Source: a bacterium
GTDB lineage: Bacteria > Patescibacteriota > Minisyncoccia > Minisyncoccales > CG1-02-41-26
Direction: 5' to 3'
Length of the DNA: 55,570 bases
Assembly (NCBI GenBank): GCA_021162885.1
Contig: JAGGXV010000022.1
Span: 1 to 55,570 of the forward strand
The notes beneath the pieces were generated by a model, which searched no databases, had not been told where the DNA came from, and saw nothing but the letters and a program-made list of their open reading frames with translations. Positions 1,557 through 45,960 of this stretch are shown piece after piece. Numbering within the stretch: position 1 is the stretch's first letter; each line of letters begins with the position of its first letter. The position numbers were made by a program, and so were the translations under genes.

Positions 1557-1740
1557 AAAAGCTACCAAATTGGAGGATCTTTCAAACTTGAAACCTTTTA
1601 CCCTTCACTTTCATCATAACATTCACACACCTTACTTTTGATACCTGCGATCGCATGTACCAAAATGTAATTTTCTTAACTCACTGACGATCGTGGGTCG
1701 TTTAAGTAAATTGGGAAAATTAGTTTTTTGATGTAAAATT

Positions 1741-9360: not shown

Positions 9361-9738
9361 TTATTTAATCAAGTCCACGAGCCATTTCCAGAAATTGGAG
9401 AAAGTTTGTTTTATTTCTATTTTTATTTCCTCTTTCTCTTTTTCGAATCGTTCTCTAATTTCTGGTTTTTTCTTTTCAAACCATTGCTGAATCTTTGGTA
9501 AAATGTTCTCTCGCCAATAGTTTATCACTCGTTGATGGGCTTTCTTCCAAATGGCCAGGACATTCCCCAAGACCTTTTTTAAACTTTCAATTGCTTCTTT
9601 AACTATCGTCTTCTCTTGGGATGTTTTTTCTTCTTGCTGAACAGAAAATTGTTCAAGAGAGTTTTGAGCCTGAGTAAAATTATAAAAGCAATTAAACACT
9701 AAAAAAACAATTATTAAAAAACTAAAATAGTGTTTCAT
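9361..9738 (-). CDS. hypothetical secreted/anchored coiled-coil protein
   Basis: 125 aa. It has an N-terminal signal-like segment FSFLIIVFLVFNCFYNFTQA followed by K/E-rich helices. Confidence 0.55.
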   Translation of the reverse strand: MKHYFSFLIIVFLVFNCFYNFTQAQNSLEQFSVQQEEKTSQEKTIVKEAIESLKKVLGNVLAIWKKAHQRVINYWRENILPKIQQWFEKKKPEIRERFEKEKEEIKIEIKQTFSNFWKWLVDLIK

Positions 9739-15278: not shown

Positions 15279-15827
15279 CTATTTCAGTTCCTCGGTATTT
15301 TTAGATATTTTAATCTTTCCAAACTTTTCCACACCGGGTTCAATCACAAACTTTTCTCGTTGCTTAATGGTAACTCCTTTGATTTCCGAAGCTTTCTCTT
15401 GTTCATTAAGCATAGCTTGTTTATCAATCTCTTCTTTAACCCGGATAAATTGAAAGAACCCAGCTTCTTTGCATCTTTTTATTATTTCCTCTTTCTTACC
15501 TTTTAAAACCACCAAAGCCTTACCAACTCTCCATCCTATAGTTCCAGTAGGAAAAGAAACTGTTTTTAATTTACCTTTCTCAGTGAGTTCCTCTCGGTTC
15601 TGTTGGGCGTATGCGTAAAGAGCTTTAATTAACTGTTCTATGATTCTCTCTTCAGTCTCTATTTTTGGCATTTCTTTTTGCCTGATTTTTTCTAGTTTTT
15701 CTTCCAGAATTGCTCTTTGACTTATGACTTTCCGTTGGTGTTCTCCTATCTGTCTAATATATTCTGCTGCCTCCTCTTTTGAAGTAGGGGGAGTAATTAT
15801 AGCTCGCTTAGCAATCTGTCCCTTCAT
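15279..15827 (-). CDS. gam: host-nuclease inhibitor protein Gam (phage Mu Gam family, Ku-like DNA-end binder)
   Basis: 182 aa. It aligns by eye along its length with Mu Gam: IRQIGEHQR, NREELTEKGKLKTVSFPTGTIGWRV and FIRVKEEIDKQAML. A strong SD (AAAGGAGGAAAAAATG) precedes the start. Confidence 0.88.
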   Translation of the reverse strand: MKGQIAKRAIITPPTSKEEAAEYIRQIGEHQRKVISQRAILEEKLEKIRQKEMPKIETEERIIEQLIKALYAYAQQNREELTEKGKLKTVSFPTGTIGWRVGKALVVLKGKKEEIIKRCKEAGFFQFIRVKEEIDKQAMLNEQEKASEIKGVTIKQREKFVIEPGVEKFGKIKISKNTEELK

Positions 15828-21910: not shown

Positions 21911-23281
21911 CTATTTAAACTCTTTAATTATCTCATAGATGTTCCCCGCGCCCATGACAATAACTATTTCCCCGCCTTTCAAACTCTTTTTTAAGTAGTT
22001 TACTATCTCCGTTTTTGGCAAATAATGAGTATAACTTTTGCCAATTGCTTCAACTAATTTTTTTGAGTCCACCTTTTTTTTAAGGTTTTTTACTTCTCTT
22101 CCCGCAACATCATAAATATCAGTGATAATCAATTTGTCGATGGGAGCTTTTCTAAAAACTTTGACAAAATCTCGGAACAAATAAAATGTCCTTTGATATT
22201 GATGGGGCTGAAAAATGCACCAGATTTCTTTTTGAAGATATTTTTCCCGAGCCGTTTTAAGAGTTGCGGCAATCTCAGTTGGGTGATGAGCATAATCGCT
22301 GATAATTTTCAATTTACAATTTTCAATTTTCAAATCTTTTTCTTCAAATCTTCGCCAGGCACCCTTGTATTCCGATAAAACCTTAAAAGAAATTTTGTCA
22401 GGAATTTTTAAAACCCGAGCACAAGTTAAAGCGGCCAAAGCATTTAAAACATTATGCTCCCCCGGCACTTTAAGCATTTGCCTAAGTTTTTGTTTTTCTT
22501 TAATTTTATTTTTTTGAAAATTGAAAATTGAAAATTGAAAATTGAAAATTATCTTTTGGATATTCCTATCTTTCCCATTTGCTATTAATACTCCATCCCT
22601 TGGCAAATGCCCAATAAATTCTCTATAAGTCCGGAGGATATGAGCCATATTTTTGTAATAATCAAGATGCTCCCTTTCAATATTGGTCAAAATAATAATT
22701 TTTGGGAAATAATTTAAAAAAGAGGCCTGCCACTCATCGGCCTCAATTACTAAAATCGCACAACCCCGCGGAACAACGCGCGAAAACCCACGGAAGGTAG
22801 GTTTTCCCATTCTAAAATTGCTATTTCCGAACTCTCTTAATTTCGTCCCTAAAATTACAGTTGGGTCCAACCCGGCTTTAATTAGAATTAAGCTGAGTAT
22901 TGCTGTCACTGTGCTTTTGCCATGAGTTCCTGCCACCGCAATGGTAAAATATTGTTTTGTTAGTTTTCCCAAAGCTTGAGGATAAGATAGACACTTGATA
23001 CCTAAGTTTTTGGCCAGTTTTAATTCTGGGTGATTTTTAGGGACTGCTGGTGAATAAATGATCAGGTCAGATTGTTTAATAAATTTTTGAATTTTAATTT
23101 GTAATTTTGATTTTTGATATTTGATATTTGATATTATTATCTTTGCTCCTTTTTTCTTCAAAAAATCGGTAATTTCGCTCTTTGTCAAATCAGAGCCACT
23201 AACTTGGTGTCCCTTAGCCAAATAATACTGAGCCAAAGCCGAAACCCCGATTCCTCCAATACCAATAAAATGAATTTTCAT
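21911..23281 (-). CDS. murC: UDP-N-acetylmuramate--L-alanine ligase
   Basis: 456 aa. Motifs are HFIGIGGIGVSALA, AGTHGKSTV, GEHNVLNALAA and DYAHHPTEI. Confidence 0.92.
   Translation of the reverse strand: MKIHFIGIGGIGVSALAQYYLAKGHQVSGSDLTKSEITDFLKKKGAKIIISNIKYQKSKLQIKIQKFIKQSDLIIYSPAVPKNHPELKLAKNLGIKCLSYPQALGKLTKQYFTIAVAGTHGKSTVTAILSLILIKAGLDPTVILGTKLREFGNSNFRMGKPTFRGFSRVVPRGCAILVIEADEWQASFLNYFPKIIILTNIEREHLDYYKNMAHILRTYREFIGHLPRDGVLIANGKDRNIQKIIFNFQFSIFNFQKNKIKEKQKLRQMLKVPGEHNVLNALAALTCARVLKIPDKISFKVLSEYKGAWRRFEEKDLKIENCKLKIISDYAHHPTEIAATLKTAREKYLQKEIWCIFQPHQYQRTFYLFRDFVKVFRKAPIDKLIITDIYDVAGREVKNLKKKVDSKKLVEAIGKSYTHYLPKTEIVNYLKKSLKGGEIVIVMGAGNIYEIIKEFK
22304..22331. repeat. AATTTTC-type heptamer block inside murC
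   Basis: aattttc aatttac aattttc aattttc. It encodes KIENCKLKI in murC. Confidence 0.9.
22516..22550. repeat. (GAAAATT)x5 heptamer array inside murC, inverted relative to 22304-22331
   Basis: Five perfect gaaaatt units. They encode IIFNFQFSIFNFQ in murC. Confidence 0.95.
23113..23133. repeat. (TTTGATA)x3 heptamer array inside murC
   Basis: Three perfect tttgata units. They sit in the N-terminal domain coding region (SNIKYQKSK). Confidence 0.9.
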
Positions 23282-23409
23282 AATTTTAGGTATTCAATAA
23301 GGTAAAAATAACTTTTTCTTAAAGTTTCATTCTCAATTTAAATCATAAGCTAATTTTCTCAAAAATAAAAGGGCTAAGTTGACTAATTCAAATAAACCCT
23401 GTATTCTAT

Positions 23410-24276
23410 ATGAACAAAAGGCTATTTCGATTGAGAACAAATATGAGGAACAAAATAACTACTTTTAGAAAGATTGCTAAGTCATTAAACTCACATTGTG
23501 CTACTTTAATAGGAAGTTCTTTTGATCCATTTGGCTCCTATTATTTTCGGCTTTTGAATTGGGCCTCTCAACAATCCAGACCATTGGTAGCAATAGTCCA
23601 TCCTGATGAAATGATTAGTATTCGAAGAAGTTTTGTTCTACCCTCAGAAAATCAATATAAACGGGTAAAAAATATTGCAAAATTAAATTTTGTAGATTAT
23701 GTCATTCTATCGCGGAAATTAGCTCACGATCCATGGTGTCTAAAAGCGTTAAGACCAAAATTTGTAATATTTCAGCATGATAATCCAGTCTATCATAAGA
23801 AACTTTTTTCTGTTTTGTCGCAATACTTTCCACAGGTTCATTTTAAGGTTGCACCTTTTAAACAAGAGAGAAATTTTCAATCCCAAGCTGTTTCCTTATC
23901 ATCAGCGAGAAATATATTTAAAGATTATCGGAATAAAATTTGTAAAAGATTAATATTGCTGGCCAAAAAAAGTGAAGCCCAAATCGGCAAAATATCTGCC
24001 ATCTTAACTTATGAAGACAAAATTGTAGCTGAGGCTTATAATTCAGACAAAGGAGAACATGCCGAGATTTTACTTTTAAGCCAGAATCGATTAAATAAAA
24101 CCCTCGACAAATATTCACTTTATGTACTTATTCCACCTTGTATAATGTGCGCGGAAGCCATTTTCCGTTCCAATATAAAAAAAGTATATTATCTATATAA
24201 CTATGGCGATAACCTAGGAATTAAATACCTGAAAAGTAAAGGTGTATCTATCAAAAAATATATTGGAAAGAGATGA
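23410..24276 (+). CDS. two-domain protein: degenerate cytidylyltransferase-like N-domain fused to a CMP/dCMP-type zinc deaminase
   Basis: 288 aa. The N-terminal half follows the cytidylyltransferase pattern (G..FD....L..A....PLVAIV..D...........P....R......L..VDYV), but HxGH is replaced by GSYY. The C-terminal half has the deaminase zinc ligands HAE and PPCIMCAEAI. Confidence 0.75.
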   Translation: MNKRLFRLRTNMRNKITTFRKIAKSLNSHCATLIGSSFDPFGSYYFRLLNWASQQSRPLVAIVHPDEMISIRRSFVLPSENQYKRVKNIAKLNFVDYVILSRKLAHDPWCLKALRPKFVIFQHDNPVYHKKLFSVLSQYFPQVHFKVAPFKQERNFQSQAVSLSSARNIFKDYRNKICKRLILLAKKSEAQIGKISAILTYEDKIVAEAYNSDKGEHAEILLLSQNRLNKTLDKYSLYVLIPPCIMCAEAIFRSNIKKVYYLYNYGDNLGIKYLKSKGVSIKKYIGKR

Positions 24277-25913
24277 ATTACCAACCTATTTCAAAAAATA
24301 CAATAGTAGTTGGAGTAAACGAGGGACATGATGGAGGAGCAGCCATAGTGGTAGATGGGATTGTCCGATGTGCTATTTCAGAAGAAAAGTTAAATCGCAA
24401 GAAATACTCTCCTGGTTATTTAAATTCTTTCTTTTATTGTTTAAACGCTCTTAATTTAAAAGTAAAAGATATCTCTTTGATAGTATTTAGCAATTACGGA
24501 AAAAGACTTCCCGAACACTACCAAGGAATGTTGAAATCCTTAGGAATTCCTCCTAAAAAATTTATAACCGCCGATCACCATTTATCCCATGCATTTGGAG
24601 CTTACTTTTTATCTCCCTTTGATGAAGCTTTAATTCTTGTTATTGATGGACAAGGAAATGGAAATGACACTGAGAGTTATTACATTGGGGAAGGTCAAAG
24701 AATTGAGAAAATAGGAGGAAACTCGCCAAACCAAGTCCCGGCGAAAGGAATTGGAAGAACATACGAGGCATTTACAAATTTTCTCGGTTGGATTGATCAA
24801 GAAGCCGGAAAAACAATGGCTTTAGCAGCTTACGGAGATGCTTCAAAAATATCAATTCCTCTCTTTAGATTGAAAGGGTTGAAAGTTATAGGAGCTTTAG
24901 ATTATAAATATGAAAGAGGAGTTATTGAGTTTGCTAAACGATATTCCTTGGATTTCGGTCCTTCATATAGCCGTGGTAATAATCCAAAATCTATAGATGT
25001 TGCTGCCTATGTCCAAAAGGAAGTTGAAAGAATTTTGATTGAATTAATTACTAAACTGGTAGAAAACACAGGTAAAAGAAAATTATGCTATGCAGGGGGT
25101 GTAGCGCTTAATTGTGTTGCTAATTATAAACTTTTCCAAAAAAGAATTGTTGATGATATTTTTATTTTACCAGCGGCCTCCGATAAAGGCCAAGCTATTG
25201 GAAACGCTCTTTATGGTTTCTACAAATTAGAAGGTTATATTCCACGACAACCATTAAGAAATGACTATTTTGGAAGAGAATATTCAGAAAAAGAAATCCT
25301 CTCGGTTCTCAAAGGAGAAAAAGTATACATAGAAAAACACATACCTACTCAACGCCAATTTTTATTTGAAAGACAGAACTCTATTCCAAAAACAGCGGCC
25401 CAACTTTTAGCTGATGGCAAAATAATCGGATGGTTTCAAGGTGGTAGTGAACTGGGGCCGAGAGCACTTGGTCATCGAAGTATTTTGTGTGACCCCAGAA
25501 ATATAAAGTTAAAAAATCAATTAAATGAAAAAATTAAACATCGAGAGTGGTTTCGTCCTTTTGCGCCGAGTTGTCTGTTAGAAAAAACACCAGAATATTT
25601 TGCATACGACAACTCTTTTCCCTACATGCTTTTTGCTCTACCAGTAAAATCTGATAAAAAAACTAAAATACCAGCTGTTATCCATATAAACGGTACTTCA
25701 AGAATTCAAACCGTAACTAAAGAAGATAATGATATATTTTTCGATCTTATTAAAGAATTTTATAATATAACCGGAATCCCTATGATATTAAATACTTCTT
25801 TTAATAGTCAAGAACCTATTGTAGAAACCCCCGAACACGCTTTATCAACTTTTTTAAAAACTGAGATGGATTATTTAGCTATTAACGACTTTTTAGTATG
25901 GAAAAAGAAATGA
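24273..25913 (+). CDS. carbamoyltransferase (NodU/CmcH family)
   Basis: 546 aa. It has the typical N-terminus VVGVNEGHDGGAAIV, then DHHLSHAFGAY, GGVALNCVAN and a C-terminal domain GPRALGHRSIL ... NTSFN. It overlaps the upstream stop by 4 nt. Confidence 0.88.
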   Translation: MNYQPISKNTIVVGVNEGHDGGAAIVVDGIVRCAISEEKLNRKKYSPGYLNSFFYCLNALNLKVKDISLIVFSNYGKRLPEHYQGMLKSLGIPPKKFITADHHLSHAFGAYFLSPFDEALILVIDGQGNGNDTESYYIGEGQRIEKIGGNSPNQVPAKGIGRTYEAFTNFLGWIDQEAGKTMALAAYGDASKISIPLFRLKGLKVIGALDYKYERGVIEFAKRYSLDFGPSYSRGNNPKSIDVAAYVQKEVERILIELITKLVENTGKRKLCYAGGVALNCVANYKLFQKRIVDDIFILPAASDKGQAIGNALYGFYKLEGYIPRQPLRNDYFGREYSEKEILSVLKGEKVYIEKHIPTQRQFLFERQNSIPKTAAQLLADGKIIGWFQGGSELGPRALGHRSILCDPRNIKLKNQLNEKIKHREWFRPFAPSCLLEKTPEYFAYDNSFPYMLFALPVKSDKKTKIPAVIHINGTSRIQTVTKEDNDIFFDLIKEFYNITGIPMILNTSFNSQEPIVETPEHALSTFLKTEMDYLAINDFLVWKKK

Positions 25914-25932
25914 TAATTTATAGAATTTAATT

Positions 25933-26379
25933 ATGAGATTTCCAAATCAAGTTTCAGTATACTGCTTATTTTGTGAAACTGGAAGAAATTTTTATATTCT
26001 TGCAAAGCGAAATAAAAAACGAGGCGGTTTTTGGCAACCCATTACAGGTGGTGAAGAAGATATTGATAAAGGAGATTTGTTCCAGACAGTAATCCGAGAA
26101 ACAAAAGAAGAGCTTGGTATTGAGATTACTAAAAAGCAAATTTGGAAAATTCCATATTCTTTTCAATTTATAGACAAAGATGGCGTTCAAAGGACTGAAT
26201 ACTGTTTTGGAGTAGTTCTTACATCAAAACAAAAAGAGAAAATTCGCTTATCTAAAGAGCATACAGCAATTATTTATGGAACTGACGTAGAATATCTGAA
26301 GTCTCTTCTTAAATTCGAGGAAAATCGTATAGCGTTAGACAAATTTTATCAATGGGCAAAAACCAACCTAAAAGATTAG
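25933..26379 (+). CDS. Nudix hydrolase (NudB-like)
   Basis: 148 aa. The Nudix box is GGEEDIDKGDLFQTVIRETKEELGI. GGFWQPITGG resembles the FWQSVTG motif of NudB-type enzymes. Confidence 0.85.
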   Translation: MRFPNQVSVYCLFCETGRNFYILAKRNKKRGGFWQPITGGEEDIDKGDLFQTVIRETKEELGIEITKKQIWKIPYSFQFIDKDGVQRTEYCFGVVLTSKQKEKIRLSKEHTAIIYGTDVEYLKSLLKFEENRIALDKFYQWAKTNLKD

Positions 26380-27068
26380 AAATCAAACTTCCTAAATCAT
26401 TACAAACCTCTATTCGAGATGGATATATAATTTCCATTATTCAGTTTGGGTCTTCTCTTCGTAGAGTGAATTATCATGACATTGACCTTGCAATTGTGGT
26501 TAAAAGTGGTTGCTACGAAAAATTCGTTAGAAAAATATATGGGAAAAACTTTAATGGTTTTGATATCTCTCTCATTAAAGAGGAGGAGGTTCAAGGAGCC
26601 AAAAAATTTCGATTTGGTAGTCACGGAGCACACTTTCTTTATTCCTTAATCAACGGGAAAGTGCTATATGGAATAAATCCTTTCCGTAAATACAGAGTCA
26701 CAAAACGGCAAATAAAAGATTCTATAATCCCACCACTTTATAATTACATAGAAGACGTTAGAAGAGCGATATTCGAGGGTAAAATCAAAAAGAGCATTAA
26801 ACAACGTTGGCCAAAATTCCTTAGATTATCCCTTTATTTAATAGATCCCGATTTGAAATATTTCGAGGCCCTCAATTTGAGGGAACATAAATTAAAAATC
26901 TATCTGAATAAATATCAGATAAAAGTAAATATTCAACCAAAAAGACCTGAAAACTTACTTATCGCTTACGAAACCATTTGGGAGGAAGTGTTAAAAAAAT
27001 ACAAACTGCTTTCTTCTCCAAAATATTCAAAAAAAATGGTTAGGTTTCTGAGCCTAACCATTTCGTAA
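26352..27068 (+). CDS. Pol-beta-superfamily nucleotidyltransferase with helical C-terminal domain
   Basis: 238 aa. IQFGSSLRRVNYHDIDLAIVV gives the GS and DxD NTase motifs. It overlaps the Nudix gene by 28 nt. Confidence 0.7.
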   Translation: MGKNQPKRLEIKLPKSLQTSIRDGYIISIIQFGSSLRRVNYHDIDLAIVVKSGCYEKFVRKIYGKNFNGFDISLIKEEEVQGAKKFRFGSHGAHFLYSLINGKVLYGINPFRKYRVTKRQIKDSIIPPLYNYIEDVRRAIFEGKIKKSIKQRWPKFLRLSLYLIDPDLKYFEALNLREHKLKIYLNKYQIKVNIQPKRPENLLIAYETIWEEVLKKYKLLSSPKYSKKMVRFLSLTIS

Positions 27069-27653
27069 ATTGGTTGTGCATTCTTTGATAAAAGAAAACA
27101 CACATTTGCTGACTTGTATAAGTTCCCCCTTTTTATTTTCAAACACTTTGATGGGGATTTTAAGTTGTTTCGCTTGGGAAAAGGCTGTTCGGAGTTCTAT
27201 TTCTTGGTGGGAAGCGATTTTGTTAAGATCAAAGAAGTTGCGATCTGGTCGAGAAGATAATTCACGTACACGTCGAGCAAGGATAGTTTCAGGGCTTGCT
27301 ATGACTACCACAAATGCTAGCATTTGAATTTCGTCTCCGGATTTATAGGGCCGGATGAAGTAGGTTCCATTCTCTTTGAGATAAGCAAAATGATCGTCTC
27401 TAATTCGTATTGTTTTTGGTTCTTTCCGATCTAATTCGGAAAAATAAGCTACCATCCGTTCACGTGCTTCTGACCGAACTTCTTCTGGCAAAAGTTGATA
27501 TTCATCTGCGGATGTCACCCCAGTAAGTTGGTATAACATTTTTCTTTCTTCCATACCTTGAAGAGGAAACCCTGTTTTCCTAGCAAATTTTATTATCGCT
27601 CTGATGAGAGTTGTTTTTCCAACACCAGGAACTCCACCAATATAGACAAACAC
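27054..27653 (-). CDS. P-loop NMP-kinase-like protein
   Basis: 199 aa with a GTG start after GGAGGTGAAAAA. It has a Walker A motif GGVPGVGKTT and an Arg-rich LID-like segment ARRVRELSSRPDR. Its 3' end overlaps the convergent NTase gene by 15 nt. Confidence 0.7.
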   Translation of the reverse strand: MFVYIGGVPGVGKTTLIRAIIKFARKTGFPLQGMEERKMLYQLTGVTSADEYQLLPEEVRSEARERMVAYFSELDRKEPKTIRIRDDHFAYLKENGTYFIRPYKSGDEIQMLAFVVVIASPETILARRVRELSSRPDRNFFDLNKIASHQEIELRTAFSQAKQLKIPIKVFENKKGELIQVSKCVFSFIKECTTNLRNG

Positions 27654-27685
27654 TTTTTCACCTCCATCATTTTTCCACTATATTA

Positions 27686-28258
27686 TTAAAGTGCAAGAAG
27701 GTTATTTTTATCTCCTGAAAGAATTTTGATTATGTAATCAATGATTTTTTCTACTGGAGTTGCTTTAACTACCCTTTCCTCGATTTTAGGCTCCAGTATT
27801 GTGATACCAAGCTTCTTAAGTTTGGCAAGATTATCCTGCAAGATGGGGTTGCTATAAAACTTTAGATTCATTGTTGGAACTATGAAAAGCTTATCAGGAG
27901 TAGTCGCACCACACAAAGAAGTCACGGCATTATCCGCTATTCCGTTAGCTATTTTATTAATAGTATTGAAGGTGGCAGGATAGACTATTACTAAATCGAA
28001 ATCAGATAGGTGCTCAGTGGAACCGGTAAGTTCTGTCACTACTGGCTTTTTGCTCATCGACTTCATAATTTCAGGGCTTACACCATGCTTTACAGCATTC
28101 TCAGTCATGAAACATTGGATTTCGGCTTTATGCTTTTTTCTGAGTTCTCTAGCAAATTTAGGAGCCGCTATTATAGCTATGCTTCCCGTAAGACACAGTG
28201 CTATTTTCTTTCCTTCTAAAATACCCTGAGCATTTCTTTTCTTTTTGTTCTCTTCCAT
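27686..28258 (-). CDS. HFCD-family flavoprotein (CoaC/EpiD-like cysteine decarboxylase fold)
   Basis: 190 aa. Motifs are KIALCLTGSIAIIAAP and YPATFNTINKIANGIADNAVTSL (PASANT..K.A.GIADNL signature). Confidence 0.8.
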   Translation of the reverse strand: MEENKKKRNAQGILEGKKIALCLTGSIAIIAAPKFARELRKKHKAEIQCFMTENAVKHGVSPEIMKSMSKKPVVTELTGSTEHLSDFDLVIVYPATFNTINKIANGIADNAVTSLCGATTPDKLFIVPTMNLKFYSNPILQDNLAKLKKLGITILEPKIEERVVKATPVEKIIDYIIKILSGDKNNLLAL

Positions 28259-28293
28259 TTTCTCCTCCTTTTAAAGAACTTACTTTATTCTTC

Positions 28294-28322
28294 ATTATAA
28301 TGCAATAAAAACTTTTTGTCAA
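28294..28322 (-). promoter_or_regulatory. consensus sigma70-type promoter for the flavoprotein/kinase operon
   Basis: On the minus strand, TTGACA (28322-28317) is followed by exactly 17 nt and then TATAAT (28299-28294). It lies about 35 nt upstream of the start codon. Confidence 0.7.
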
Positions 28323-28446: not shown

Positions 28447-29031
28447 CTACCCAAGTGCTATTGATTCTAAGATTGTGTATTCTGCACCGGTTCTTTTCAA
28501 TTTGCTTTCCATTATTTCAATTGACTTGACTTCAAAATCCAAAGAAATTTCTTTTTCAATCTCCGGCCGTTCTTCTGGTTCAATTCTTCTCCACTGCCAT
28601 GTCCTGATTCTTCCTAAAGTAATATGGGGAGAAAACTCCCTTTTTTCTACTTTTCTCAAAATGCCGGATTTAGCCATCTCTTTTTTCAGTTTTTCAGCCG
28701 AATTCAACAATTCTGGCTTTTTTTCTAATTCAATCCAGATTAAACGGGGTGGTATTTGTTTTGGTGGTCCATAACATACTTTTTTAAATTTCAGAGAAAA
28801 TGGCTTTTGCGCCTCCGCGATATTCTTTACAATTTGGCGAATTTTGGGAATTTTTTCATCTTCGACCGAGCCAATAAAAAGCAAAGTCAGATGCAAATTC
28901 TCCTTTTTCACCCAGCGAACCACTCCCCTATTTGCTTCTTCAGGGAATAAACTATCTAATTCTTTTTCTAAATTCTCTAACTCAGTTTTAATCTTTTCCG
29001 GTAAATTTATAGCAATAAAAATCCTTTTCAT
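28447..29031 (-). CDS. thpR: RNA 2',3'-cyclic phosphodiesterase / 2'-5' RNA ligase (2H phosphoesterase, LigT/ThpR)
   Basis: 194 aa. It has the two H-x-T-x motifs HLTLLFIG and HITLGRI. Confidence 0.88.
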   Translation of the reverse strand: MKRIFIAINLPEKIKTELENLEKELDSLFPEEANRGVVRWVKKENLHLTLLFIGSVEDEKIPKIRQIVKNIAEAQKPFSLKFKKVCYGPPKQIPPRLIWIELEKKPELLNSAEKLKKEMAKSGILRKVEKREFSPHITLGRIRTWQWRRIEPEERPEIEKEISLDFEVKSIEIMESKLKRTGAEYTILESIALG

Positions 29032-29157: not shown

Positions 29158-30174
29158 ATGAAGGAGGTTTATCTTTACAAAAAACTAAAGAACAAAAAAG
29201 TTCAATGCCAAAATTGTGCTCACTATTGTGTAATTGAACCCGGAAGAAAAGGTAAATGTTATGTCAGAGAAAACAAAGATGGCAAACTTTATTCTTTGGT
29301 TTACGGAAAAGCTTGCGCTATAAACATTGACCCAATTGAGAAAAAGCCATTTTTTCATTTTTTACCAGGTTCTCAATCCTTATCAATTGCCACTGTTGGT
29401 TGTAACTTTGCTTGCCAAAATTGTCAAAATTGGCAAATCTCCCAAGCCCCAAGAATTTTTAAAAAAATAGAAGGTCAAGAGCTTCCACCCAAAGAAGTTA
29501 TCAAAATCGCTTTAGAAAACAATCTTTCATCGATTTCTTACACCTATACGGAACCTGCGATATTTTCCGATTACGCCTTAGACACAATGAAATTAGCAAA
29601 AAAAGCCGGCTTAAAAAACAACTGGGTCTCAAATGGATTTTGGTCAGAAGAATTATTTAATTTAATCTCCCTTTATTTAGACGCCGCCAACATCGACCTT
29701 AAAAGTTTCGATGATAAATTTTATCAAAAATACGCTGGTGGCCGGCTTCAACCGGTTTTAGACACTTTAAAGCGTCTCAAAAAGTCTGGCATTTGGGTTG
29801 AGGTGACAACTTTGGTTATTCCAACTCTCAGTGACGATTTAAAAATGTTAAGGGAAATCGCGGAATTTATCAAAAATGAACTGGGTCCCGAAACTCCTTG
29901 GCATATTTCTCAATTTTCTGGAGTTATTTCTTGGAAACTCCAGCATTTACCCGAAACTCCAGTTGAAACTTTAAAAAAAGCCTGGCAAATCGGCAAAAAA
30001 GCCGGTCTAAAATATGTTTACACTGGCAACATCCCCGGTTTGGAGCAAGAAGACACTTTCTGTCCAAAATGCGGAGCAAAAATGATAGACCGCACCGGCT
30101 ACTCTATCACCCGCTCAGATAACCACGGCAAATGCTCCAAATGTGGCGAAGATTTAAATCTAATTTTAAAATAA
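29158..30174 (+). CDS. amrS: AmmeMemoRadiSam system radical SAM enzyme
   Basis: 338 aa. It has N-terminal Cys motifs CQNCAHYC, a radical SAM cluster GCNFACQNCQNW and a C-terminal zinc ribbon CPKCG..CSKCG. Confidence 0.85.
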   Translation: MKEVYLYKKLKNKKVQCQNCAHYCVIEPGRKGKCYVRENKDGKLYSLVYGKACAINIDPIEKKPFFHFLPGSQSLSIATVGCNFACQNCQNWQISQAPRIFKKIEGQELPPKEVIKIALENNLSSISYTYTEPAIFSDYALDTMKLAKKAGLKNNWVSNGFWSEELFNLISLYLDAANIDLKSFDDKFYQKYAGGRLQPVLDTLKRLKKSGIWVEVTTLVIPTLSDDLKMLREIAEFIKNELGPETPWHISQFSGVISWKLQHLPETPVETLKKAWQIGKKAGLKYVYTGNIPGLEQEDTFCPKCGAKMIDRTGYSITRSDNHGKCSKCGEDLNLILK

Positions 30175-30182
30175 AACAAAAA

Positions 30183-30204
30183 GGGAGCTAAAATCTTAGC
30201 TCCC
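30183..30204. terminator. bidirectional hairpin terminator
   Basis: gggagcta (30183-90) pairs with tagctccc (30197-204). It is flanked by A-runs on one side and T-equivalent runs on the other, between convergent genes. Confidence 0.6.
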
Positions 30205-30212
30205 CTAAAAAA

Positions 30213-30503
30213 TCATTTCCATTTCCATTCCGCAGCTATCCTCGGTGAAGGATCGCCAATTTCAATGTAAAATTCTCCATTATTCAGCTTTATTCTTATC
30301 CCTGGAAAAGCTGCTGGAATTGATGCTTCTATTCTTTCTGACAGAAAAGCTTTGAATTGGGGAAAATTTTCAAGAATGGCAAGAGTTTCTGGTTGGGTGA
30401 AAGAAGAAATTGGAATTCGCATTGCTCTTCCAAATCCCAAAACCTCCTTTAAAGAAGGTTTTGGCACTATCCTTTCCTCAATAATTTCTCTTAAATCCAT
30501 CAC
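30213..30503 (-). CDS. hypothetical protein
   Basis: 96-aa ORF with a strong SD (AAGGAGGGTGTGATG). I recognise no motif. Confidence 0.5.
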   Translation of the reverse strand: MMDLREIIEERIVPKPSLKEVLGFGRAMRIPISSFTQPETLAILENFPQFKAFLSERIEASIPAAFPGIRIKLNNGEFYIEIGDPSPRIAAEWKWK

Positions 30504-30558
30504 ACCCTCCTTATTATAAAATTTTTAATATCCTTATCTTATCACAAAATATACTAAA

Positions 30559-31392
30559 ATGTCAAGTGAACAATTAAAATTTGCTTCAATCTGTCCTCAT
30601 CCCCCAATAATTATTCCAACCATCGGCTCGCCTCCCGATTTAGAAAAAGTCTCAAAAACCATTTCTGCAATGGAAAAGTTGGGAAAAATTTTTGCCAAAA
30701 CTGCTCCAGATACTGTAATAATCGTTTCACCTCACGGTCCGGTTGATTTTAGTCAGTTCACAATAAACGACTCCCCTACTCTCGCTGGTCATTTTTACAA
30801 TTTCGGCGATTTCCAAACAGAATTGGTTTTCAAAAATGATTTGGAATTAATAGAACAAATCAAAAACACCCTAACTTATTTCAACCACGATCGTGGATCA
30901 TTTAAGATAAATCAGTTGCCATTCCGAGAAATTAACTTGAAAGAACTCGACCACGGAGCATTGGTTCCTCTTTATTATCTTTCTCGAGAGTATCCAAAAT
31001 TTAAAGTAGTACCCATTGCCTATTCTTACTTGGATATAGAAACTCATTTTAAATTTGGTAAAATTCTCAAAAAAGCAATAGAATCTCAAGACAAAAAAAT
31101 AGCCATAGTAGCTTCTGGAGATTTGTCTCACCGTTTAACTCCCGAAGCGCCAGCTGGCTACAGTTCTAGAGGCAAAGAATTTGATGAAAAATTGATTGAA
31201 CTTTTAAAAAATAAAGATGTCAAAGGAATTTTAAATATGGACCCCGATTTAGTTGAAGAAGCCGGCGAATGCGGCTATCGCTCAATAATAATTTTGCTGG
31301 GTGCACTTGATGGCTTAAACTGGCAGCCTGAAATTCTTTCTTATGAAGGGCCCTTCGGCGTCGGCTATTTGGTAATGAATTTTAATTTGTGA
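30559..31392 (+). CDS. class III extradiol dioxygenase-fold protein (LigB/Memo superfamily; AmmeMemoRadiSam partner B-like)
   Basis: 277 aa. Motifs are CPHPPIIIP, IVSPHGP, ASGDLSHRL and GECGYRS. Confidence 0.7.
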   Translation: MSSEQLKFASICPHPPIIIPTIGSPPDLEKVSKTISAMEKLGKIFAKTAPDTVIIVSPHGPVDFSQFTINDSPTLAGHFYNFGDFQTELVFKNDLELIEQIKNTLTYFNHDRGSFKINQLPFREINLKELDHGALVPLYYLSREYPKFKVVPIAYSYLDIETHFKFGKILKKAIESQDKKIAIVASGDLSHRLTPEAPAGYSSRGKEFDEKLIELLKNKDVKGILNMDPDLVEEAGECGYRSIIILLGALDGLNWQPEILSYEGPFGVGYLVMNFNL

Positions 31393-32153
31393 TTAATTTT
31401 TCAAAGATTAAAAAAATTTTCTCTCAAGAAGCCAAGTTAATTGAGATAAAAAACCCAAAGAAGGTTATTTTTGTTGGGGATACTCATGGAGATTTAGAAG
31501 CATCGGAGAAAGTAATTAAAAAGTATCTTAAACCAGCTAACAAAATTGTCTTTTTAGGGGATTACATAGACAGAGGGCTTCATTCAAAAGAGAATTTAGA
31601 TTATCTACTTGAGCAAAAAGAAAAGTTTCCTAATCAAATTTATCTTTGCGGAGGCAACCACGAAGGCCACCATATTTTAGAATTTTCACCAGCTGATTTC
31701 TGGGAAAATTTAAATATTGATGAATACAGAAAATATACAGAAATTGTCAAGAAATTCCCTTTAGTGGCAGTTGTTAGAGATATTATCGCTTTGCATGGTG
31801 CTTTACCTGATGTAAAAAATCTAAAAGAGATAAACAAAATAGAGCTAGGGAGTGAACGATGGTTCCAGATTACTTGGGGAGATTTCGTAGAAGAACCCGG
31901 AAAATTTTTAGGGTTTAATTCAATGACTGGTCGTCCCCAGTTTGGCAGAGATTGGTTCAATAATTTAATGGAAAGATTTCACAAAAAAGTTCTCATTCGC
32001 TCCCACCAACCCACCGCTCCCCAATTTATGTATGACAATCGCTGTCTCACCATTTTCACCTCCTCTGCTTATGCTCGCGAAAGAACCATTGCTATTGCTG
32101 ATTTCACTAAACAAATAAAAACTGCCAAAGATTTAGAAATTAAAAGAATTTAA
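31389..32153 (+). CDS. PPP-family (calcineurin-like) metallophosphoesterase
   Basis: 254 aa. Motifs are GDTHGD, GDYIDRG and GNHE. The GTG start overlaps the upstream stop (GTGA). Confidence 0.85.
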   Translation: MINFSKIKKIFSQEAKLIEIKNPKKVIFVGDTHGDLEASEKVIKKYLKPANKIVFLGDYIDRGLHSKENLDYLLEQKEKFPNQIYLCGGNHEGHHILEFSPADFWENLNIDEYRKYTEIVKKFPLVAVVRDIIALHGALPDVKNLKEINKIELGSERWFQITWGDFVEEPGKFLGFNSMTGRPQFGRDWFNNLMERFHKKVLIRSHQPTAPQFMYDNRCLTIFTSSAYARERTIAIADFTKQIKTAKDLEIKRI

Positions 32154-32159
32154 CACTTT

Positions 32160-32468
32160 ATGAAATTTGTGGTAAAAAATATATCAGGAGAGAATCTTAT
32201 AAATTTGATGAGGAAGATTGGCTACCATTATGCTGGAGAGAGCCGTGATAAAACGCAGCTAACATTTACTCGTTCTTTAGGGCCTAATTCTTATCCTCGC
32301 TTTCATATTTATTTAAAAGAAAATAAAGAGACCGGAGAGATATTTTTAAATTTGCATCTTGACCAGAAAAAACCAATTTACAAAGGTGCTCCAGCCCATA
32401 GCGCTGAGTACGAAGGTGAAGTTGTTGAAAAGGAAGCAGAAAGGATTAAAAATGTGTTAAATAAATGA
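32160..32468 (+). CDS. hypothetical small protein
   Basis: 102-aa ORF starting 6 nt after the upstream stop. I recognise no motif. Confidence 0.55.
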   Translation: MKFVVKNISGENLINLMRKIGYHYAGESRDKTQLTFTRSLGPNSYPRFHIYLKENKETGEIFLNLHLDQKKPIYKGAPAHSAEYEGEVVEKEAERIKNVLNK

Positions 32469-32480
32469 TAAAATAGAGTA

Positions 32481-33005
32481 ATGAATCCTTTTATTGAATT
32501 AGCAAAAAAGGCGGTAGAGAATTACATCAAAAAAGGAGAAATTATTGATGTGCCGGATAATTTGCCAAGAGAGATATTAGAAAAGAAATCTGGCACTTTT
32601 GTGACTATTAAAAAGAGTGGTCAACTGCGTGGCTGTATAGGCACTTATTTGCCAACAAGAGAGAATATTGCTGAAGAAATAATTCGAAATGCCATAGCTG
32701 CAGCCACCCAAGATTATCGATTTGATGCAGTACAAAAAGAAGAACTTCCTTATTTGTCTTACACTGTTTATATTTTAGACAAACCAGAACAAATAAAAGA
32801 TATTTCCGAACTCGACCCTAAAAAATACGGTATTTTGATAAAAACTTTAGATTTCCCCCCTAAATCCGCTCTCTTGCTCCCAGATTTAGAGGGTTTAGAT
32901 ACAGTTGAAAAACAGCTTTTTGCTGCCTGCCAAAAAGCCGGAATTAACCCAGAAAAAGAAAAAATTGTAATCTATAAATTTTCAGCCAAAAAATATGGCA
33001 AATGA
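32481..33005 (+). CDS. amrA: AMMECR1-domain protein (AmmeMemoRadiSam system protein A)
   Basis: 174 aa with GTFVTIKKSGQLRGCIGTYLPT (LRGCIG signature). Confidence 0.88.
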   Translation: MNPFIELAKKAVENYIKKGEIIDVPDNLPREILEKKSGTFVTIKKSGQLRGCIGTYLPTRENIAEEIIRNAIAAATQDYRFDAVQKEELPYLSYTVYILDKPEQIKDISELDPKKYGILIKTLDFPPKSALLLPDLEGLDTVEKQLFAACQKAGINPEKEKIVIYKFSAKKYGK

Positions 33006-34798: not shown

Positions 34799-35596
34799 TT
34801 AACACGAAAAAAGCCCGACTCCGGGCTTTTTTGTATTTGCTGCGGGGTTTGGATTCGAACCAAAATCAGAGGAGCCAAGGTCCTCGGTGCTACCATTACA
34901 CCACCCCGCAATTTTTTTTGACATTTTATGAACTCCCTCAATCCAACCTGCTATTTTTCTATTAAAATTTATACTCTTTCTAACTTTAATCCTCAATAGT
35001 CCAAAATATTTTTCTCCTATATTTTTTCTTTTTGTATTAATTTTATGCTTTTTCCAGGTAATTTTTTGAAAATTTTCTATAGGAAAACCTGTAACTTTCG
35101 ACCAATATCGTCGCACTCTCTTTAATTTATCTTTAGCGGTTTCGTGAAGATAAATACGGAAATAAATTTCTGATTTTGGTATTTTACAAATCTCCAAGAG
35201 CCATCTTAAAAAGACTTTTATCAAATATGGATCTGAGTTTCCTAAATCCACCAAGCTACCTTTCTCTTTTTCCTTGTGTCCTTCTGCCCAATAAAGTGCT
35301 ACCCCAAATAACCAAAGGTCTCTTTCACTGATATTTCCTATTTCATTTCTTGCTTTCTCTTTTATCTCTTCCGTAATGATCTTTCTCTGATTTCTCCTTT
35401 TAAGAGCTCCCCTAAGAGCAGCTAATAGTTTCCTTTTTGTTAATCTTTGTTTTTGCCTCCTACTTAGCCCAACACTTCTCAACCATAACGAGAGAGTTGA
35501 CTTAGCTACTGGGATTTTCTTTAAAATCTCACTGTAAGAATACCCCTCTCTTCGTAATTTTATTGCTTGCTCTTTTTCTTTAAGTTTAGGTATCAT
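34799..35596 (-). CDS. HTH plus LAGLIDADG-like endonuclease-fold protein; ORF reads through tRNA-Gln and its terminator
   Basis: 265-aa ORF. The N-terminal HTH is GYSYSEILKKIPVAKSTLSLWL. The LAGLIDADG-like block is LWLFGVALYWAEGHK. The last 37 codons (IAGWCNGSTEDLGSSDFGSNPNP...) are the tRNA and hairpin sequence translated. Confidence 0.5.
   Translation of the reverse strand: MIPKLKEKEQAIKLRREGYSYSEILKKIPVAKSTLSLWLRSVGLSRRQKQRLTKRKLLAALRGALKRRNQRKIITEEIKEKARNEIGNISERDLWLFGVALYWAEGHKEKEKGSLVDLGNSDPYLIKVFLRWLLEICKIPKSEIYFRIYLHETAKDKLKRVRRYWSKVTGFPIENFQKITWKKHKINTKRKNIGEKYFGLLRIKVRKSINFNRKIAGWIEGVHKMSKKIAGWCNGSTEDLGSSDFGSNPNPAANTKKPGVGLFSC
34806..34832. terminator. bidirectional hairpin terminator (serves tRNA-Gln and fmt)
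   Basis: aaaaaa-gcccg-actc-cgggc-tttttt. Confidence 0.7.
34840..34910 (-). tRNA. tRNA-Gln (anticodon UUG), no encoded CCA
   Basis: Hand-folded. Acceptor UGCGGGG/CCCCGCA with U1-A72 and G73, D stem GUGU/GCAC, anticodon stem GAGGA/UCCUC with loop CCUUGGC, T arm UUUGG-UUCGAAU-CCAAA. Position 33 reads C rather than U. Confidence 0.85.
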
Positions 35597-37700: not shown

Positions 37701-37848
37701 TATCTTTTGATTTTGATTCCTCTCCGGAATCATGGCAGAGATATAACTGCGAGGAAACTTTACCGCCCTTTCTCACCGCCGTATGGTTTTAGCGGGAATC
37801 ACGGCTTACGACCCTTCCCAGGACCGGGTAGAACTTCTATTCTACCTT
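37701..37848 (-). ncRNA. GC-rich structured segment (3' UTR element or independent small RNA) downstream of the 121-aa gene
   Basis: Local G+C is roughly one half against about one third for the flanks. It contains consecutive hairpins GGTAGAA/TTCTACC (37829-48), GGGAA/TTCCC (37793-818), GCAG/CTGC and GATTCC/GGAATC (37715-31). No ORF is present on either strand. Confidence 0.45.
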
Positions 37849-38202
37849 CACTGTAGCTTTTCCATCCAGTGCGGCTTGAAGAATTCTCCCGATAGCCCCT
37901 GTTTCATTAGAAGCAAAATACTGAATTGAATTTTCCCCTGCCTTTTCAGGTAAAGGTATAATCTCAATCCATTCCTTACGAGTTCTATCCCAGAGATCTA
38001 CGCTTCTCGATCTTACTCTCATCTTTAGCTTGCCAATTCCTTTAAAGTCAGCAGTCAAATTAATTTGTGCGTTCGCTTTTTCCGCTCGTTCAATAAGTTC
38101 TTCAAGAAGATTAGTACGTTTCTGTTCTTTAGTTTGGACTTCCTGTTTCTGTTGTTCCTTCTCTGCGAGCAACTGATCCACTTTTTTAAGAAACTCTTCC
38201 AT
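37837..38202 (-). CDS. hypothetical protein with N-terminal coiled coil
   Basis: 121-aa ORF with a strong SD (AAAGGAGGTGATAAGGGATG) and its own promoter. I recognise no motif. Confidence 0.6.
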   Translation of the reverse strand: MEEFLKKVDQLLAEKEQQKQEVQTKEQKRTNLLEELIERAEKANAQINLTADFKGIGKLKMRVRSRSVDLWDRTRKEWIEIIPLPEKAGENSIQYFASNETGAIGRILQAALDGKATVKVE

Positions 38203-39078: not shown

Positions 39079-39107
39079 ATTATAGCAAATATATTTCGTT
39101 ATGTCAA
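39079..39107 (-). promoter_or_regulatory. consensus sigma70-type promoter for the membrane-peptide/zinc-ribbon operon
   Basis: On the minus strand, TTGACA (39107-02) is followed by 17 nt and then TATAAT (39084-79). Confidence 0.7.
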
Positions 39108-40766: not shown

Positions 40767-40795
40767 TTGACATCGGAGGTTTGGGAAATTATAAT
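40767..40795 (+). promoter_or_regulatory. consensus sigma70-type promoter upstream of dnaB
   Basis: TTGACA (40767-72) is followed by 17 nt and then TATAAT (40790-95). The ATG lies 11 nt after the -10. Confidence 0.6.
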
Positions 40796-45567: not shown

Positions 45568-45960
45568 CTAGATTATTTTATTTGCGATAAGTTGGGTTAA
45601 TTTTTCTGCTAAACTCAAAATTTTTTTACATTCTTGACGAGAATAAACTCTTATTTCAGGAGGATAACGGGATTCAATATAGTATTTATTTAAAGTTATT
45701 AGGTCATCTTTAAGCTGTTGAAAATCTCTATCTATTTCTTTACAAAGATTCATTAAAAACATTAAATCATGAACTTTAGGAAACCTCTTTCGATTAAAAA
45801 CCAAAAATCCTTTTAAGTATTTTTCAACTGCTTGATGACAGTGAAAACACAAAGTATCCGAAGGACCTTTCTCTCGATAAAGAATTTCAGCAGCCCTTAA
45901 ATCATTCTGGGCTTTTATTATCCATTCTTGAAATAATTTAGGATTATTATTTACCGGCAT
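45568..45960 (-). CDS. HEPN-domain protein (toxin-like partner of the adjacent nucleotidyltransferase)
   Basis: 130 aa. It has AQNDLRAAEIL, HCHQAVEKYLK and YYIESRYP (R-x4-6-H-type HEPN region). Confidence 0.8.
   Translation of the reverse strand: MPVNNNPKLFQEWIIKAQNDLRAAEILYREKGPSDTLCFHCHQAVEKYLKGFLVFNRKRFPKVHDLMFLMNLCKEIDRDFQQLKDDLITLNKYYIESRYPPEIRVYSRQECKKILSLAEKLTQLIANKII

Follow-up and report, generated by a model that had tools for sequence, protein, structure and literature searches.

The locus described here raises the question why a member of the Patescibacteria (Minisyncoccales, lineage CG1-02-41-26) carries six tightly packed genes for an unfamiliar set of enzymes in an otherwise ordinary part of its chromosome. 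It occupies positions 23,410 to 28,322 of contig JAGGXV010000022.1 (assembly GCA_021162885.1), of which the first 55,570 nucleotides (nt) were analyzed and are called the window in the following. The six open reading frames (ORFs), named O1 to O6, had been delineated in an initial annotation made from the sequence alone, and our ORF call returned all of them at the same coordinates, in the same convergent layout, and with the same overlaps of 4 nt (O1/O2), 28 nt (O3/O4), and 15 nt (O4/O5, tail-to-tail). The overlapping gene ends suggest translational coupling. In short, the block is a cassette that is inherited as a unit, and it can tentatively be read as a nucleotide-level tailoring pathway with an O-carbamoylation as its signature step. 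The genes, all taken from the ORF call, are:

23410-24276, plus strand: O1, 288 amino acids (aa), putative cytidylyltransferase-like/deaminase fusion, start probably at ATG 23443
24273-25913, plus strand: O2, 546 aa, predicted O-carbamoyltransferase
25933-26379, plus strand: O3, 148 aa, predicted Nudix hydrolase
26352-27068, plus strand: O4, 238 aa, predicted nucleotidyltransferase
27054-27653, minus strand: O5, 199 aa, predicted adenylate kinase homolog
27686-28258, minus strand: O6, 190 aa, predicted flavoprotein

Whether these genes belong together was decided by comparison with other loci, which were collected by scanning reference genomes and metagenomes with an O4 profile and by homolog look-up. 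The counts are based on ten distinct close O4 homologs besides the window, and the denominators are the loci with enough flanking sequence. O3 lies directly upstream of O4 at nine of nine assessable loci, O2 upstream of O3 at eight of eight, and a convergent O5 downstream of O4 at nine of nine; one shorter contig of high GC content has no O5 within 564 nt. O1 heads the operon at five of seven loci, and O6 is present at two of seven, namely the window and L001, a contig from JGI, in addition to a possible remnant at the locus L041. In at least eight distinct loci with differing flanks, O2-O3-O4-O5 keep their arrangement with respect to order, orientation, and overlaps. The contig L001 contains the same six genes in identical order, orientation, and overlap pattern, with protein identities of 61-84%, but its flanks are wholly unlike those of the window and encode histidine kinases, a radical SAM protein, and GNAT, HAD, and GT4 proteins. 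The same gene order despite differing flanks means that the block is inherited as a unit. Therefore, it is a co-inherited cassette and not a chance adjacency. Its invariant core consists of O2-O3-O4 and the convergent O5, with O1 as a common and O6 as a rare add-on. The initial annotation had regarded the six genes as one unit, which is correct insofar as they form a genuine functional unit, but they are not six equal members.

In loci of the Nealsonbacteria type O1 is missing, and a divergent GNAT gene occupies its position. DNA methyltransferase genes surround the cassette in Nealsonbacteria, and GNAT and methyltransferase genes adjoin it. All organism-labelled genome matches of the O4 scan are metagenome-assembled genomes of Patescibacteria, and the viral contigs, which were scanned with the O1 and O4 profiles, contained no relatives. 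The cassette is apparently restricted to the Patescibacteria; recurrence in related genomes had been envisaged together with recurrence in phage genomes, and the former was found for the core, with different flanks, while the latter was not found among the viral contigs scanned. More distant O4 homologs (30-47% identity) are part of a different operon, with genes for a GNAT protein, a nucleotidyltransferase, an SDR protein, a methyltransferase, and an alpha/beta hydrolase. The adjacency of ligT to the cassette is not conserved, and a role in RNA repair, which this neighbor might have indicated, was rejected on that ground. Databases annotate the members of the cassette only as "hypothetical protein", "deaminase", or "carbamoyltransferase".

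Several loci show signs of decay. The O5 homologs of two Nealsonbacteria loci (L016, 8681-9163; L017, 6190-6687) have no P-loop N-terminus, which is retained in the closely related L040, and L049 (5950-7463) contains only a fragment of O2 together with a split O4. In addition, genes for HisKA_7TM sensor histidine kinases and a GNAT protein adjoin the cassette in two unrelated loci (L001, 2201-7222; L016, 1788-5768), and a HisKA kinase gene is located directly upstream of a distant O4 homolog (L027, 6279-7925). The recurring histidine kinases may represent a regulatory link to the cassette.

The enzyme classes assigned initially agree with the results of domain and structure searches (Pfam, NCBIfam, structure models), including O4, which has no Pfam match but for which the model indicates an ANT-type fold. 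The initial annotation had also allowed for clear housekeeping orthologs; however, none of the proteins reaches the NCBIfam cut-off of ComEB, TadA, NudB, CoaC/CoaBC, NodU, or adenylate kinase.

The central enzyme is O2, which to judge from its sequence is a bona fide O-carbamoyltransferase of the TobZ/NodU/CmcH type, dependent on ATP and carbamoyl phosphate. The Kae1/ASKHA-like N-terminal domain and the YrdC-like C-terminal domain are both recognizable, as Carbam_trans_N (1.2e-41) and Carbam_trans_C (5.2e-67) of Pfam match above the gathering score, NovN, GdmN, and TobZ are full-length matches in the PDB (about 1e-66 to 1e-71), and the HHxxH motif is visible in the sequence as DHHLSHA. The NodU equivalog model (NCBIfam NF041651) is not reached (166.7 bits, cut-off 1000). 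O2 is 74-83% identical among cassettes. With an identity of about 50%, it also resembles proteins from many Streptomyces that are about 539 aa long, while phage homologs have only 31-35% identity. By sequence comparison O2 belongs to a separate and strongly conserved clade that includes the Streptomyces proteins.

In Streptomyces the gene belongs to a conserved and apparently undescribed operon of seven genes, which encodes a GT2 glycosyltransferase, a methionine adenosyltransferase of the archaeal type (PF01941), a sugar-phosphate isomerase/epimerase, a Gfo/Idh/MocA oxidoreductase, a P-loop protein, the carbamoyltransferase, and a NUDIX protein, with a divergent XRE regulator (L053, 1978-9124; L058, 3981-11128; L059, 3969-11110). 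The three replicons are one chromosome arm and two linear plasmids (e.g., NZ_CP130719, NZ_CP108307, CP108512). Like the cassette, this operon has the carbamoyltransferase gene between those of a P-loop protein and a Nudix protein, in the order carbamoyltransferase, then Nudix. However, the P-loop protein is of the AAA_28 type and its homology to O5 is unproven (hhalign probability 46%), the Nudix protein has a weak similarity to O3 (1e-4), and an ANT-like nucleotidyltransferase, a deaminase, and an HFCD protein are not encoded. Other members of the O2 clade in Patescibacteria adjoin a gene for a HAD phosphatase, together with one for either a SIS isomerase or an FtsJ-like methyltransferase, and one O2 homolog adjoins an EcoRI-type methylase and GmrSD.

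O3 is predicted to be a NudB-like Nudix hydrolase. It matches the Pfam NUDIX domain with 1e-9, its best NCBIfam model is NudB (7e-10, 38.6 bits versus a cut-off of 103), and the Listeria protein 3son is a full-length match in the PDB (5e-7). The REx2EE core of the Nudix box is intact in GGEEDIDKGDLFQTVIRETKEELGI, with a loop that is two residues longer than canonical and an altered first Glu position. The convergent gene encodes a P-loop protein with the Walker A motif GGVPGVGKTT and a match to Pfam AAA_17. O5 matches the archaeal adenylate kinase model PRK04040 (NCBIfam) with 3e-13 and 49.9 bits, the equivalog cut-off being 155. A profile built from eight homologs matched only archaeal adenylate kinases, namely six AdkA structures over their full length, of which 6ln3 was the best (1.2e-11), followed by 3h86, 6pjw, 1ki9, and 1kht. 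Therefore, O5 would be a homolog, but not an ortholog, of the archaeal-type adenylate kinases, i.e., a putative nucleoside monophosphate (NMP) kinase.

O4 was without a match in Pfam, NCBIfam, PHROG, and PADLOC, and its assignment comes from conserved residues and from a structure model. The residues F32-G33-S34-S35, D43, D45, and D71 are invariant in 25 homologs and form the Pol-beta motif FGSS-x7-DIDL with a third Asp. The AlphaFold2 (AF2) model, which has a predicted local distance difference test score (pLDDT) of 87, consists of an N-terminal nucleotidyltransferase domain and a C-terminal helical bundle. Its best matches in the PDB are AAD(9) 6xz0, ANT(4') 1kny, LinB 3jyy, and AadA, with E-values from 7e-5 to 5e-3 and template modeling (TM) scores of 0.32-0.45; MNT antitoxins and HalB rank lower, and a fold search of BFVD returned generic nucleotidyltransferases only. 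O4 is thus predicted to be a two-domain nucleotidyltransferase of the Pol-beta superfamily that is similar to ANT and Lnu enzymes. It shares with ANT(4'), AAD(9), AadA, and LinB the two-domain architecture and the catalytic carboxylate triad, but it does not belong to their families at the sequence level and reaches no higher TM-scores than those given above. The C-terminal stretch of approximately 20 residues in O4 (…KKMVRFLSLTIS) overlaps the 3' end of O5 and holds the predicted terminator hairpin. It is present only in the window (27000-27068) and in L001 (11560-11626), and the other O4 homologs end earlier. Therefore, the tail-to-tail overlap of O4 and O5 is a lineage-specific extension.

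O1 had been described as a cytidylyltransferase-like/deaminase fusion. The fusion stands, with a cytidylyltransferase-like domain at about residues 30-150 and a zinc-dependent deaminase of the CDA fold at about residues 175-285, but the start codon shifts and the N-terminal domain has lost its HxGH motif. Most likely, translation begins at ATG 23443, as in the database entry (277 aa) and in the homologs. Pfam identifies dCMP_cyt_deam_1 (PF00383, 2e-11) and PF14437, together with a weak match to CTP_transf_like. The zinc motifs of the deaminase, H217-A-E219 and P243-C244-x-x-C247, are invariant in an alignment of 15 sequences. The first structural neighbors of the C-terminal domain are dCMP deaminases (cyanophage S-TIM5, human, T4), followed by TadA (AF2 model, pLDDT 71), and the NCBIfam scores for both families are below the cut-offs (ComEB 32.4 versus 219 bits; TadA 37.8 versus 150 bits).

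By a fold-level match the N-terminal domain of O1 is a member of the TagD/ECT/RfaE-II cytidylyltransferase family; the profile retrieved ethanolamine-phosphate cytidylyltransferase (3elb, 1e-4) and the RfaE/RibL-like 3glv (7e-4) from the PDB. In the alignment of 15 homologs HxGH is replaced by N-x-Y-Y, which reads F-N-S-Y-Y in O1, and the second motif of the RTxGISTT/ISTS type is absent. Because both signature motifs are affected, the transferase domain is probably catalytically inactive, and it would probably serve as a cytidine-nucleotide binding or regulatory module. O1 may thus be an example of a pseudo-enzyme, in which a transferase domain that has lost its catalytic motifs is fused to an active-looking deaminase. 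A library search with the N-terminal domain retrieved about ten representatives of the O1 subfamily, then deaminase fusions that keep HxGH, and then stand-alone enzymes of about 160 aa. Two of the fusions, P0201 (272 aa) and P0211 (310 aa), have the domain order and the N-domain family in common with O1, but retain the HxGH and ISTS motifs that the O1 subfamily has lost. P0201 is fused to a deaminase of the TadA/dCMP type and P0211 to one of the Cdd type; these different partners indicate that the fusion of cytidylyltransferase and deaminase arose or was remodelled more than once. The two clusters that have an organism name, those of P0201 and of Kuenenbacteria, are from Patescibacteria.

Homologs of O1 were found in three further arrangements. 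In Kuenenbacteria O1 is followed by genes for an APH/choline-kinase, a PHP protein, a Pol-beta nucleotidyltransferase, and a GT4 protein. In the second arrangement O1 is accompanied by DJ-1/PfpI, a mannose-6-phosphate-isomerase-like cupin, a Pol-beta nucleotidyltransferase, CYTH, and a convergent ndk, and in the third O1 is convergent on ndk and an O3-like Nudix gene. What recurs around O1 is a Pol-beta nucleotidyltransferase together with a phosphohydrolase of the Nudix, CYTH, or PHP type and a kinase that is AdkA-like or of the NDK or APH type. The nucleotidyltransferases of the other arrangements have only the superfamily motif in common with O4.

O6 is predicted to be a stand-alone flavoprotein of the HFCD family, similar to EpiD and CoaC, and a lineage-specific add-on. 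It matches the Pfam Flavoprotein domain (3.6e-25), the N-terminal half of the CoaBC model TIGR00521 (7e-37, below the cut-off), and EpiD in the PDB (1e-19). Its motifs PATFNT and PTMNLKFY align with the PASANT-type and PxMNxxMW-type motifs of EpiD, the active-site H67 of EpiD is aligned with a Ser, with a His three residues downstream, and the alignment to AtHAL3a ends at residue 173, ahead of the substrate clamp of AtHAL3a. A CoaB is not encoded in the 55-kb window, and O6 scores below the cut-offs of both the CoaC and the CoaBC models. A coenzyme A pathway composed of CoaC-like, CoaD-like, and kinase functions was considered and rejected, as the N-terminal domain of O1 is TagD/ECT-like and probably inactive, O5 is AdkA-like and not CoaE-like, and O6 is located outside the core. 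At the locus L041 an ORF beside O5 (1230-1586, minus strand) ends in a stretch of 58 residues that matches the C-terminus of O6 with 45% identity, and has an upstream part that is apparently unrelated; it is possibly the relic of an HFCD gene that was lost.

Of the five proteins that accompany O2, four would be nucleotide enzymes, namely a pyrophosphohydrolase for NTPs or NDP-X compounds, an NMP-kinase homolog, a dCMP-deaminase-like domain with a putative nucleotide-binding appendage, and a transferase that uses NTPs. Therefore, the most economical reading of the cassette, which is apparently restricted to Patescibacteria and is inherited as a unit, is a nucleotide-level tailoring pathway with O-carbamoylation as its signature step. 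We assign a probability of roughly 0.38 to this reading. With the enzyme classes and the linkage of the genes as described, the order of the steps, which we infer from the enzyme classes alone, would be as follows. O3 would act on a (deoxy)nucleoside triphosphate, or on a conjugate of a nucleoside diphosphate, and split off pyrophosphate so that the monophosphate is left. O2 would form carbamoyl-AMP from ATP and carbamoyl phosphate and then carbamoylate a hydroxyl group of the nucleotide, which may belong to the sugar or to a substituent of the base; O-carbamoylation via carbamoyl-AMP is the mechanism of TobZ. The modified NMP would be re-phosphorylated by O5, and O4 would move a nucleoside monophosphate onto a hydroxyl acceptor. 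Where present, O1 would deaminate a cytosine nucleotide (C-to-U), and in the few lineages that have it O6 would contribute a flavin-dependent oxidation.

Such a division of labor has parallels in phages. The nucleotide modification of T4 involves the dCTPase gp56, the dCMP hydroxymethylase gp42, the dNMP kinase gp1, and the dCMP deaminase cd. By analogy, the cassette may contain the same four roles, i.e., conversion of a nucleoside triphosphate to an NMP, modification at the NMP level, phosphorylation of the NMP to the diphosphate, and deamination of dCMP. However, each step is assigned to a different enzyme family than in T4, the modification is made by a carbamoyltransferase, and the viral contigs scanned gave no phage context. 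The PHROG matches of the cassette proteins are limited to the generic families of dCMP deaminases, Nol-like carbamoyltransferases, and Nudix proteins.

A second parallel involves a carbamoyltransferase itself. A TobZ-like phage enzyme acts on 5-hydroxymethylcytosine (5hmC) in DNA and RNA and on 5hmdCTP, and in phage contigs with the modification its gene is found together with thymidylate-synthase homologs, a PRA-PH pyrophosphohydrolase, and dCMP_cyt_deam_1/MafB19-deam domains (Yang et al., eLife 2021, PMC8670742). The cassette likewise combines a TobZ-type enzyme with a dCMP_cyt_deam_1/MafB19-deam protein, and its Nudix protein may take the role that the PRA-PH/MazG pyrophosphohydrolases have in the phage clusters. 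In contrast to these clusters, it has a cellular context, has no thymidylate-synthase homolog, and adds an ANT-like nucleotidyltransferase and an AdkA-like kinase. O2 was considered as an ortholog or clade member of the phage enzyme, and this was ruled out by an identity of 22%. Of the functions that the initial annotation had proposed, the synthesis or editing of a modified nucleotide or nucleotide-sugar is the one that survives, with the phage clusters as a precedent, although O2 is outside their clade.

Several observations speak against a nucleotide-level pathway. The identity between O2 and the characterized 5hmC carbamoyltransferase is only 22% (E-value 1e-9), and TobZ, NovN, and GdmN are about as distant. 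Enzymes of the ThyA/ThyX type, which would provide a hydroxymethyl group, were not found (Pfam Thymidylat_synt) in the cassette, in related cassettes, or among the window ORFs of at least 157 aa, a scan that did not include the three shorter ORFs 9361-9738, 37837-38202, and 45568-45960, and a hydroxyl acceptor on a base is thus without an obvious source. Elsewhere, the neighbors of the O2 clade encode sugar-phosphate isomerases, HAD phosphatases, methyltransferases, and glycosyltransferases, so that a sugar acceptor fits equally well. Characterized enzymes with the ANT fold act on aminoglycosides or lincosamides and not on nucleotides, and the neighbors of the distant O4 homologs encode GNAT, SDR, methyltransferase, and hydrolase proteins. 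Finally, the substrates of all six proteins and the product of the pathway are putative.

The best-surviving alternative, which we nevertheless regard as unlikely, is the decoration of an envelope polymer or glycan. The product would be an O-carbamoylated sugar-nucleotide or sugar-phosphate destined for a surface polymer, with O4 or O1 activating the sugar, O2 adding the carbamoyl group, and O3 and O5 returning the released nucleotide to use. NodU/NolO-type enzymes carbamoylate sugars, and the genomic neighborhoods point in the same direction: members of the O2 clade are accompanied by genes for a SIS sugar-phosphate isomerase and for a HAD phosphatase, or in Streptomyces by those for GT2, a sugar-phosphate isomerase/epimerase, and a Gfo/Idh/MocA oxidoreductase, the cassette of L001 has GT4 and HAD genes in its vicinity, APH/choline-kinase and GT4 genes follow the O1 homologs of Kuenenbacteria, and the cassette of the window borders mur/dcw genes. 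The N-terminal domain of O1 also descends from cytidylyltransferases of the TagD/RfaE type, which use sugar- or alcohol-phosphates, but in O1 both signature motifs are lost. Moreover, the core is devoid of a glycosyltransferase, a flippase, and a sugar-1-phosphate nucleotidyltransferase, sugar-nucleotide pathways do not usually include an adenylate kinase of the archaeal type or a dCMP-deaminase-like domain, and the outer flanks of the cassette are not conserved.

Distinctly less probable is the hypermodification of nucleic acid bases or the production of an antiviral nucleotide analog, with a cellular counterpart of 5-carbamoyloxymethylcytosine or a product of the chain-terminator type. This would extend the parallel to the phage clusters, which pair a TobZ-like enzyme with dCMP_cyt_deam_1/MafB19-deam and a nucleoside triphosphate pyrophosphohydrolase (PMC8670742), to the cassette with the same Pfam deaminase domains, a Nudix protein as a functional analog, and an NMP kinase. 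It would also fit the DNA methyltransferases around the Nealsonbacteria cassette and the O2 homolog beside the EcoRI-type methylase and GmrSD. However, no ThyA homolog is present in the cassette or among the scanned ORFs of the window, O2 has an identity of only 22% to the characterized enzyme and of only 31-35% to the phage homologs of O2, the viral contigs contained no relatives of O1 or O4, and PADLOC found nothing meaningful. In its most specific form the idea is that the cassette makes an O-carbamoylated pyrimidine (deoxy)nucleotide without a hydroxymethylase of the ThyA type, which is then either incorporated into nucleic acid or else attached by O4 to a target, and we consider this form similarly doubtful. 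If it were true, the cassette would be a bacterial counterpart of the 5-carbamoyloxymethylcytosine chemistry of phages, possibly used in conflicts between host and symbiont or with phages, and the related operon of Streptomyces would yield a chemically related metabolite of the nucleoside type.

Slightly less credible still is an island for the inactivation of xenobiotics or antibiotics, in which O4, O2, and the kinase would modify an aminoglycoside, a lincosamide, or a nucleoside antibiotic. Structurally, O4 is most similar to nucleotidyltransferases that confer resistance, but with modest TM-scores to ANT enzymes (0.32-0.45). TobZ acts on an aminoglycoside, GNAT and methyltransferase genes adjoin the cassette of Nealsonbacteria, GNAT, SDR, methyltransferase, and hydrolase genes accompany the distant O4 homologs, and in Kuenenbacteria O1 is followed by a kinase of the APH fold. 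O5, in contrast, resembles adenylate kinases and neither APH nor CPT enzymes, a Nudix protein and a deaminase have no role in the drug-modifying islands known so far, and the conservation of O2 (74-83%) fits a metabolic role better than resistance.

A chance adjacency of salvage genes, i.e., of a dCMP deaminase, a house-cleaning Nudix protein, an adenylate kinase, and CoaC, had been the mundane explanation of the initial annotation. It is now very improbable and largely refuted for the core, being contradicted by the order, orientation, and overlaps that are kept between different flanks, but it is possible for O6, which is only loosely attached. Two of the other arrangements have O1 homologs beside ndk, and the small genomes of Patescibacteria pack unrelated genes tightly. 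However, no protein reaches a housekeeping equivalog cut-off, and a carbamoyltransferase of the TobZ type and an ANT-like nucleotidyltransferase are out of place in salvage. An immunity module that depletes dCTP or other nucleotides, which had also been proposed initially, can almost be discounted, because the weak matches to a PADLOC dCTPase (4.5e-7) and to an NCBIfam anti-phage dCTP deaminase (2e-4) cover the deaminase core only, O1 scores 20.2 bits against a cut-off of 400 (NCBIfam NF041025), has a probably inactive cytidylyltransferase domain instead of a kinase-like N-terminus and 288 aa instead of more than 430 aa, and is absent from some cassettes, and neither another convincing PADLOC match, an effector gene, nor viral relatives were found.

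For the preferred reading, the nucleotide-level tailoring pathway, the literature searched for a cassette of a carbamoyltransferase and nucleotide enzymes contained no description of the gene combination, in agreement with the initial impression that no described pathway has it. New are the conserved combination of four to six genes, its apparent restriction to Patescibacteria, and the fusion of a putative pseudo-cytidylyltransferase with a deaminase. The superfamily of each protein was already known, as were multi-enzyme clusters for the tailoring of nucleotides or small molecules that are built around a carbamoyltransferase. The metabolism of Patescibacteria is minimal, and their nucleotides are presumably scavenged. 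The investment of several enzymes in a carbamoylated product of the nucleotide type would thus be unexpected for this group, and such a product might indicate that the group has a cofactor, a signal, a surface decoration, or a nucleic acid modification of a new kind. In addition, the O2 clade provides a cross-phylum link to an uncharacterized P-loop/carbamoyltransferase/Nudix operon, which is apparently widespread in the experimentally tractable genus Streptomyces.

Transcription of the cassette in the window can be related to three predicted signals:

23379..23407, plus strand: promoter-like site TTGACT-17-TATTCT, a weak match of the consensus scan (9/12), inferred to serve the operon downstream of it
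28294..28322, minus strand: perfect sigma-70 promoter TTGACA-17-TATAAT for O6-O5, from the consensus scan
27033..27064, minus strand: hairpin with a 12-bp stem followed by a T-run, from the terminator scan, at the convergent junction inside the 3' end of O4

The promoter of the minus-strand pair had been noticed initially and was found again at 28322..28294, and a strong ribosome-binding site, AAGGAGGAG, is located between it and the ATG of O6. The hairpin is likely the intrinsic terminator of the O6-O5 transcript. Exact 12/12 copies of TTGACA-17-TATAAT occur three times in the 55-kb window versus 0.02 expected from shuffled sequences, which indicates that promoters of this type are genuinely used in the genome. 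One of the other two copies (40767-40795, plus strand) precedes dnaB by 12 nt and is in the same orientation; for the other (39079-39107, minus strand), which is oriented against the adjacent cysS, no gene is assigned. In a search that was aimed at RNA evidence for co-transcription, the sequence was present only in DNA metagenome runs from a hydrothermal vent.

The block is flanked by murC (21911-23281) and the gene for a LigT-type phosphoesterase (28447-29031), and its initial description as lying in an otherwise housekeeping region agrees with the gene content of the window. The remainder is ordinary chromosome, with pyrG, gltX, murG, ftsW, murD, murI, mraY, aspS, tyrS, and fmt, and in addition dnaX, cysS, dnaB, recR, and ATP synthase genes. 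The GC content of the block equals that of its surroundings, and a search for borders of mobile elements around it yielded only short AT-rich chance repeats. A pair of overlapping genes for tyrosine recombinases of the phage-integrase family (6816-8339 and 8251-9243, both minus strand) lies beside gltX, about 14 kb from the cassette, and no connection with the latter was found.

Some further features of the window were observed. A gene for a phage Mu Gam-like protein (15279-15827, minus strand) is part of the cell-wall cluster, with murD on one side and murI on the other. Immediately to the right of ligT (29158-33005, plus strand) lies a set of the AmmeMemoRadiSam type, which consists of a radical SAM gene (29158-30174), a LigB/Memo gene (30559-31392), and an AMMECR1 gene (32481-33005), and into which a gene for a calcineurin-like phosphoesterase (31389-32153) is inserted. 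An ORF of 265 aa without a Pfam match (34799-35596, minus strand) overlaps tRNA-Gln (34839-34910, minus strand) on the same strand, and its 3' part is probably non-coding. The dnaB gene (40807-43455, plus strand) is split by an intein with a LAGLIDADG homing endonuclease (Pfam DnaB, DnaB_C, Intein_splicing, and LAGLIDADG_3).

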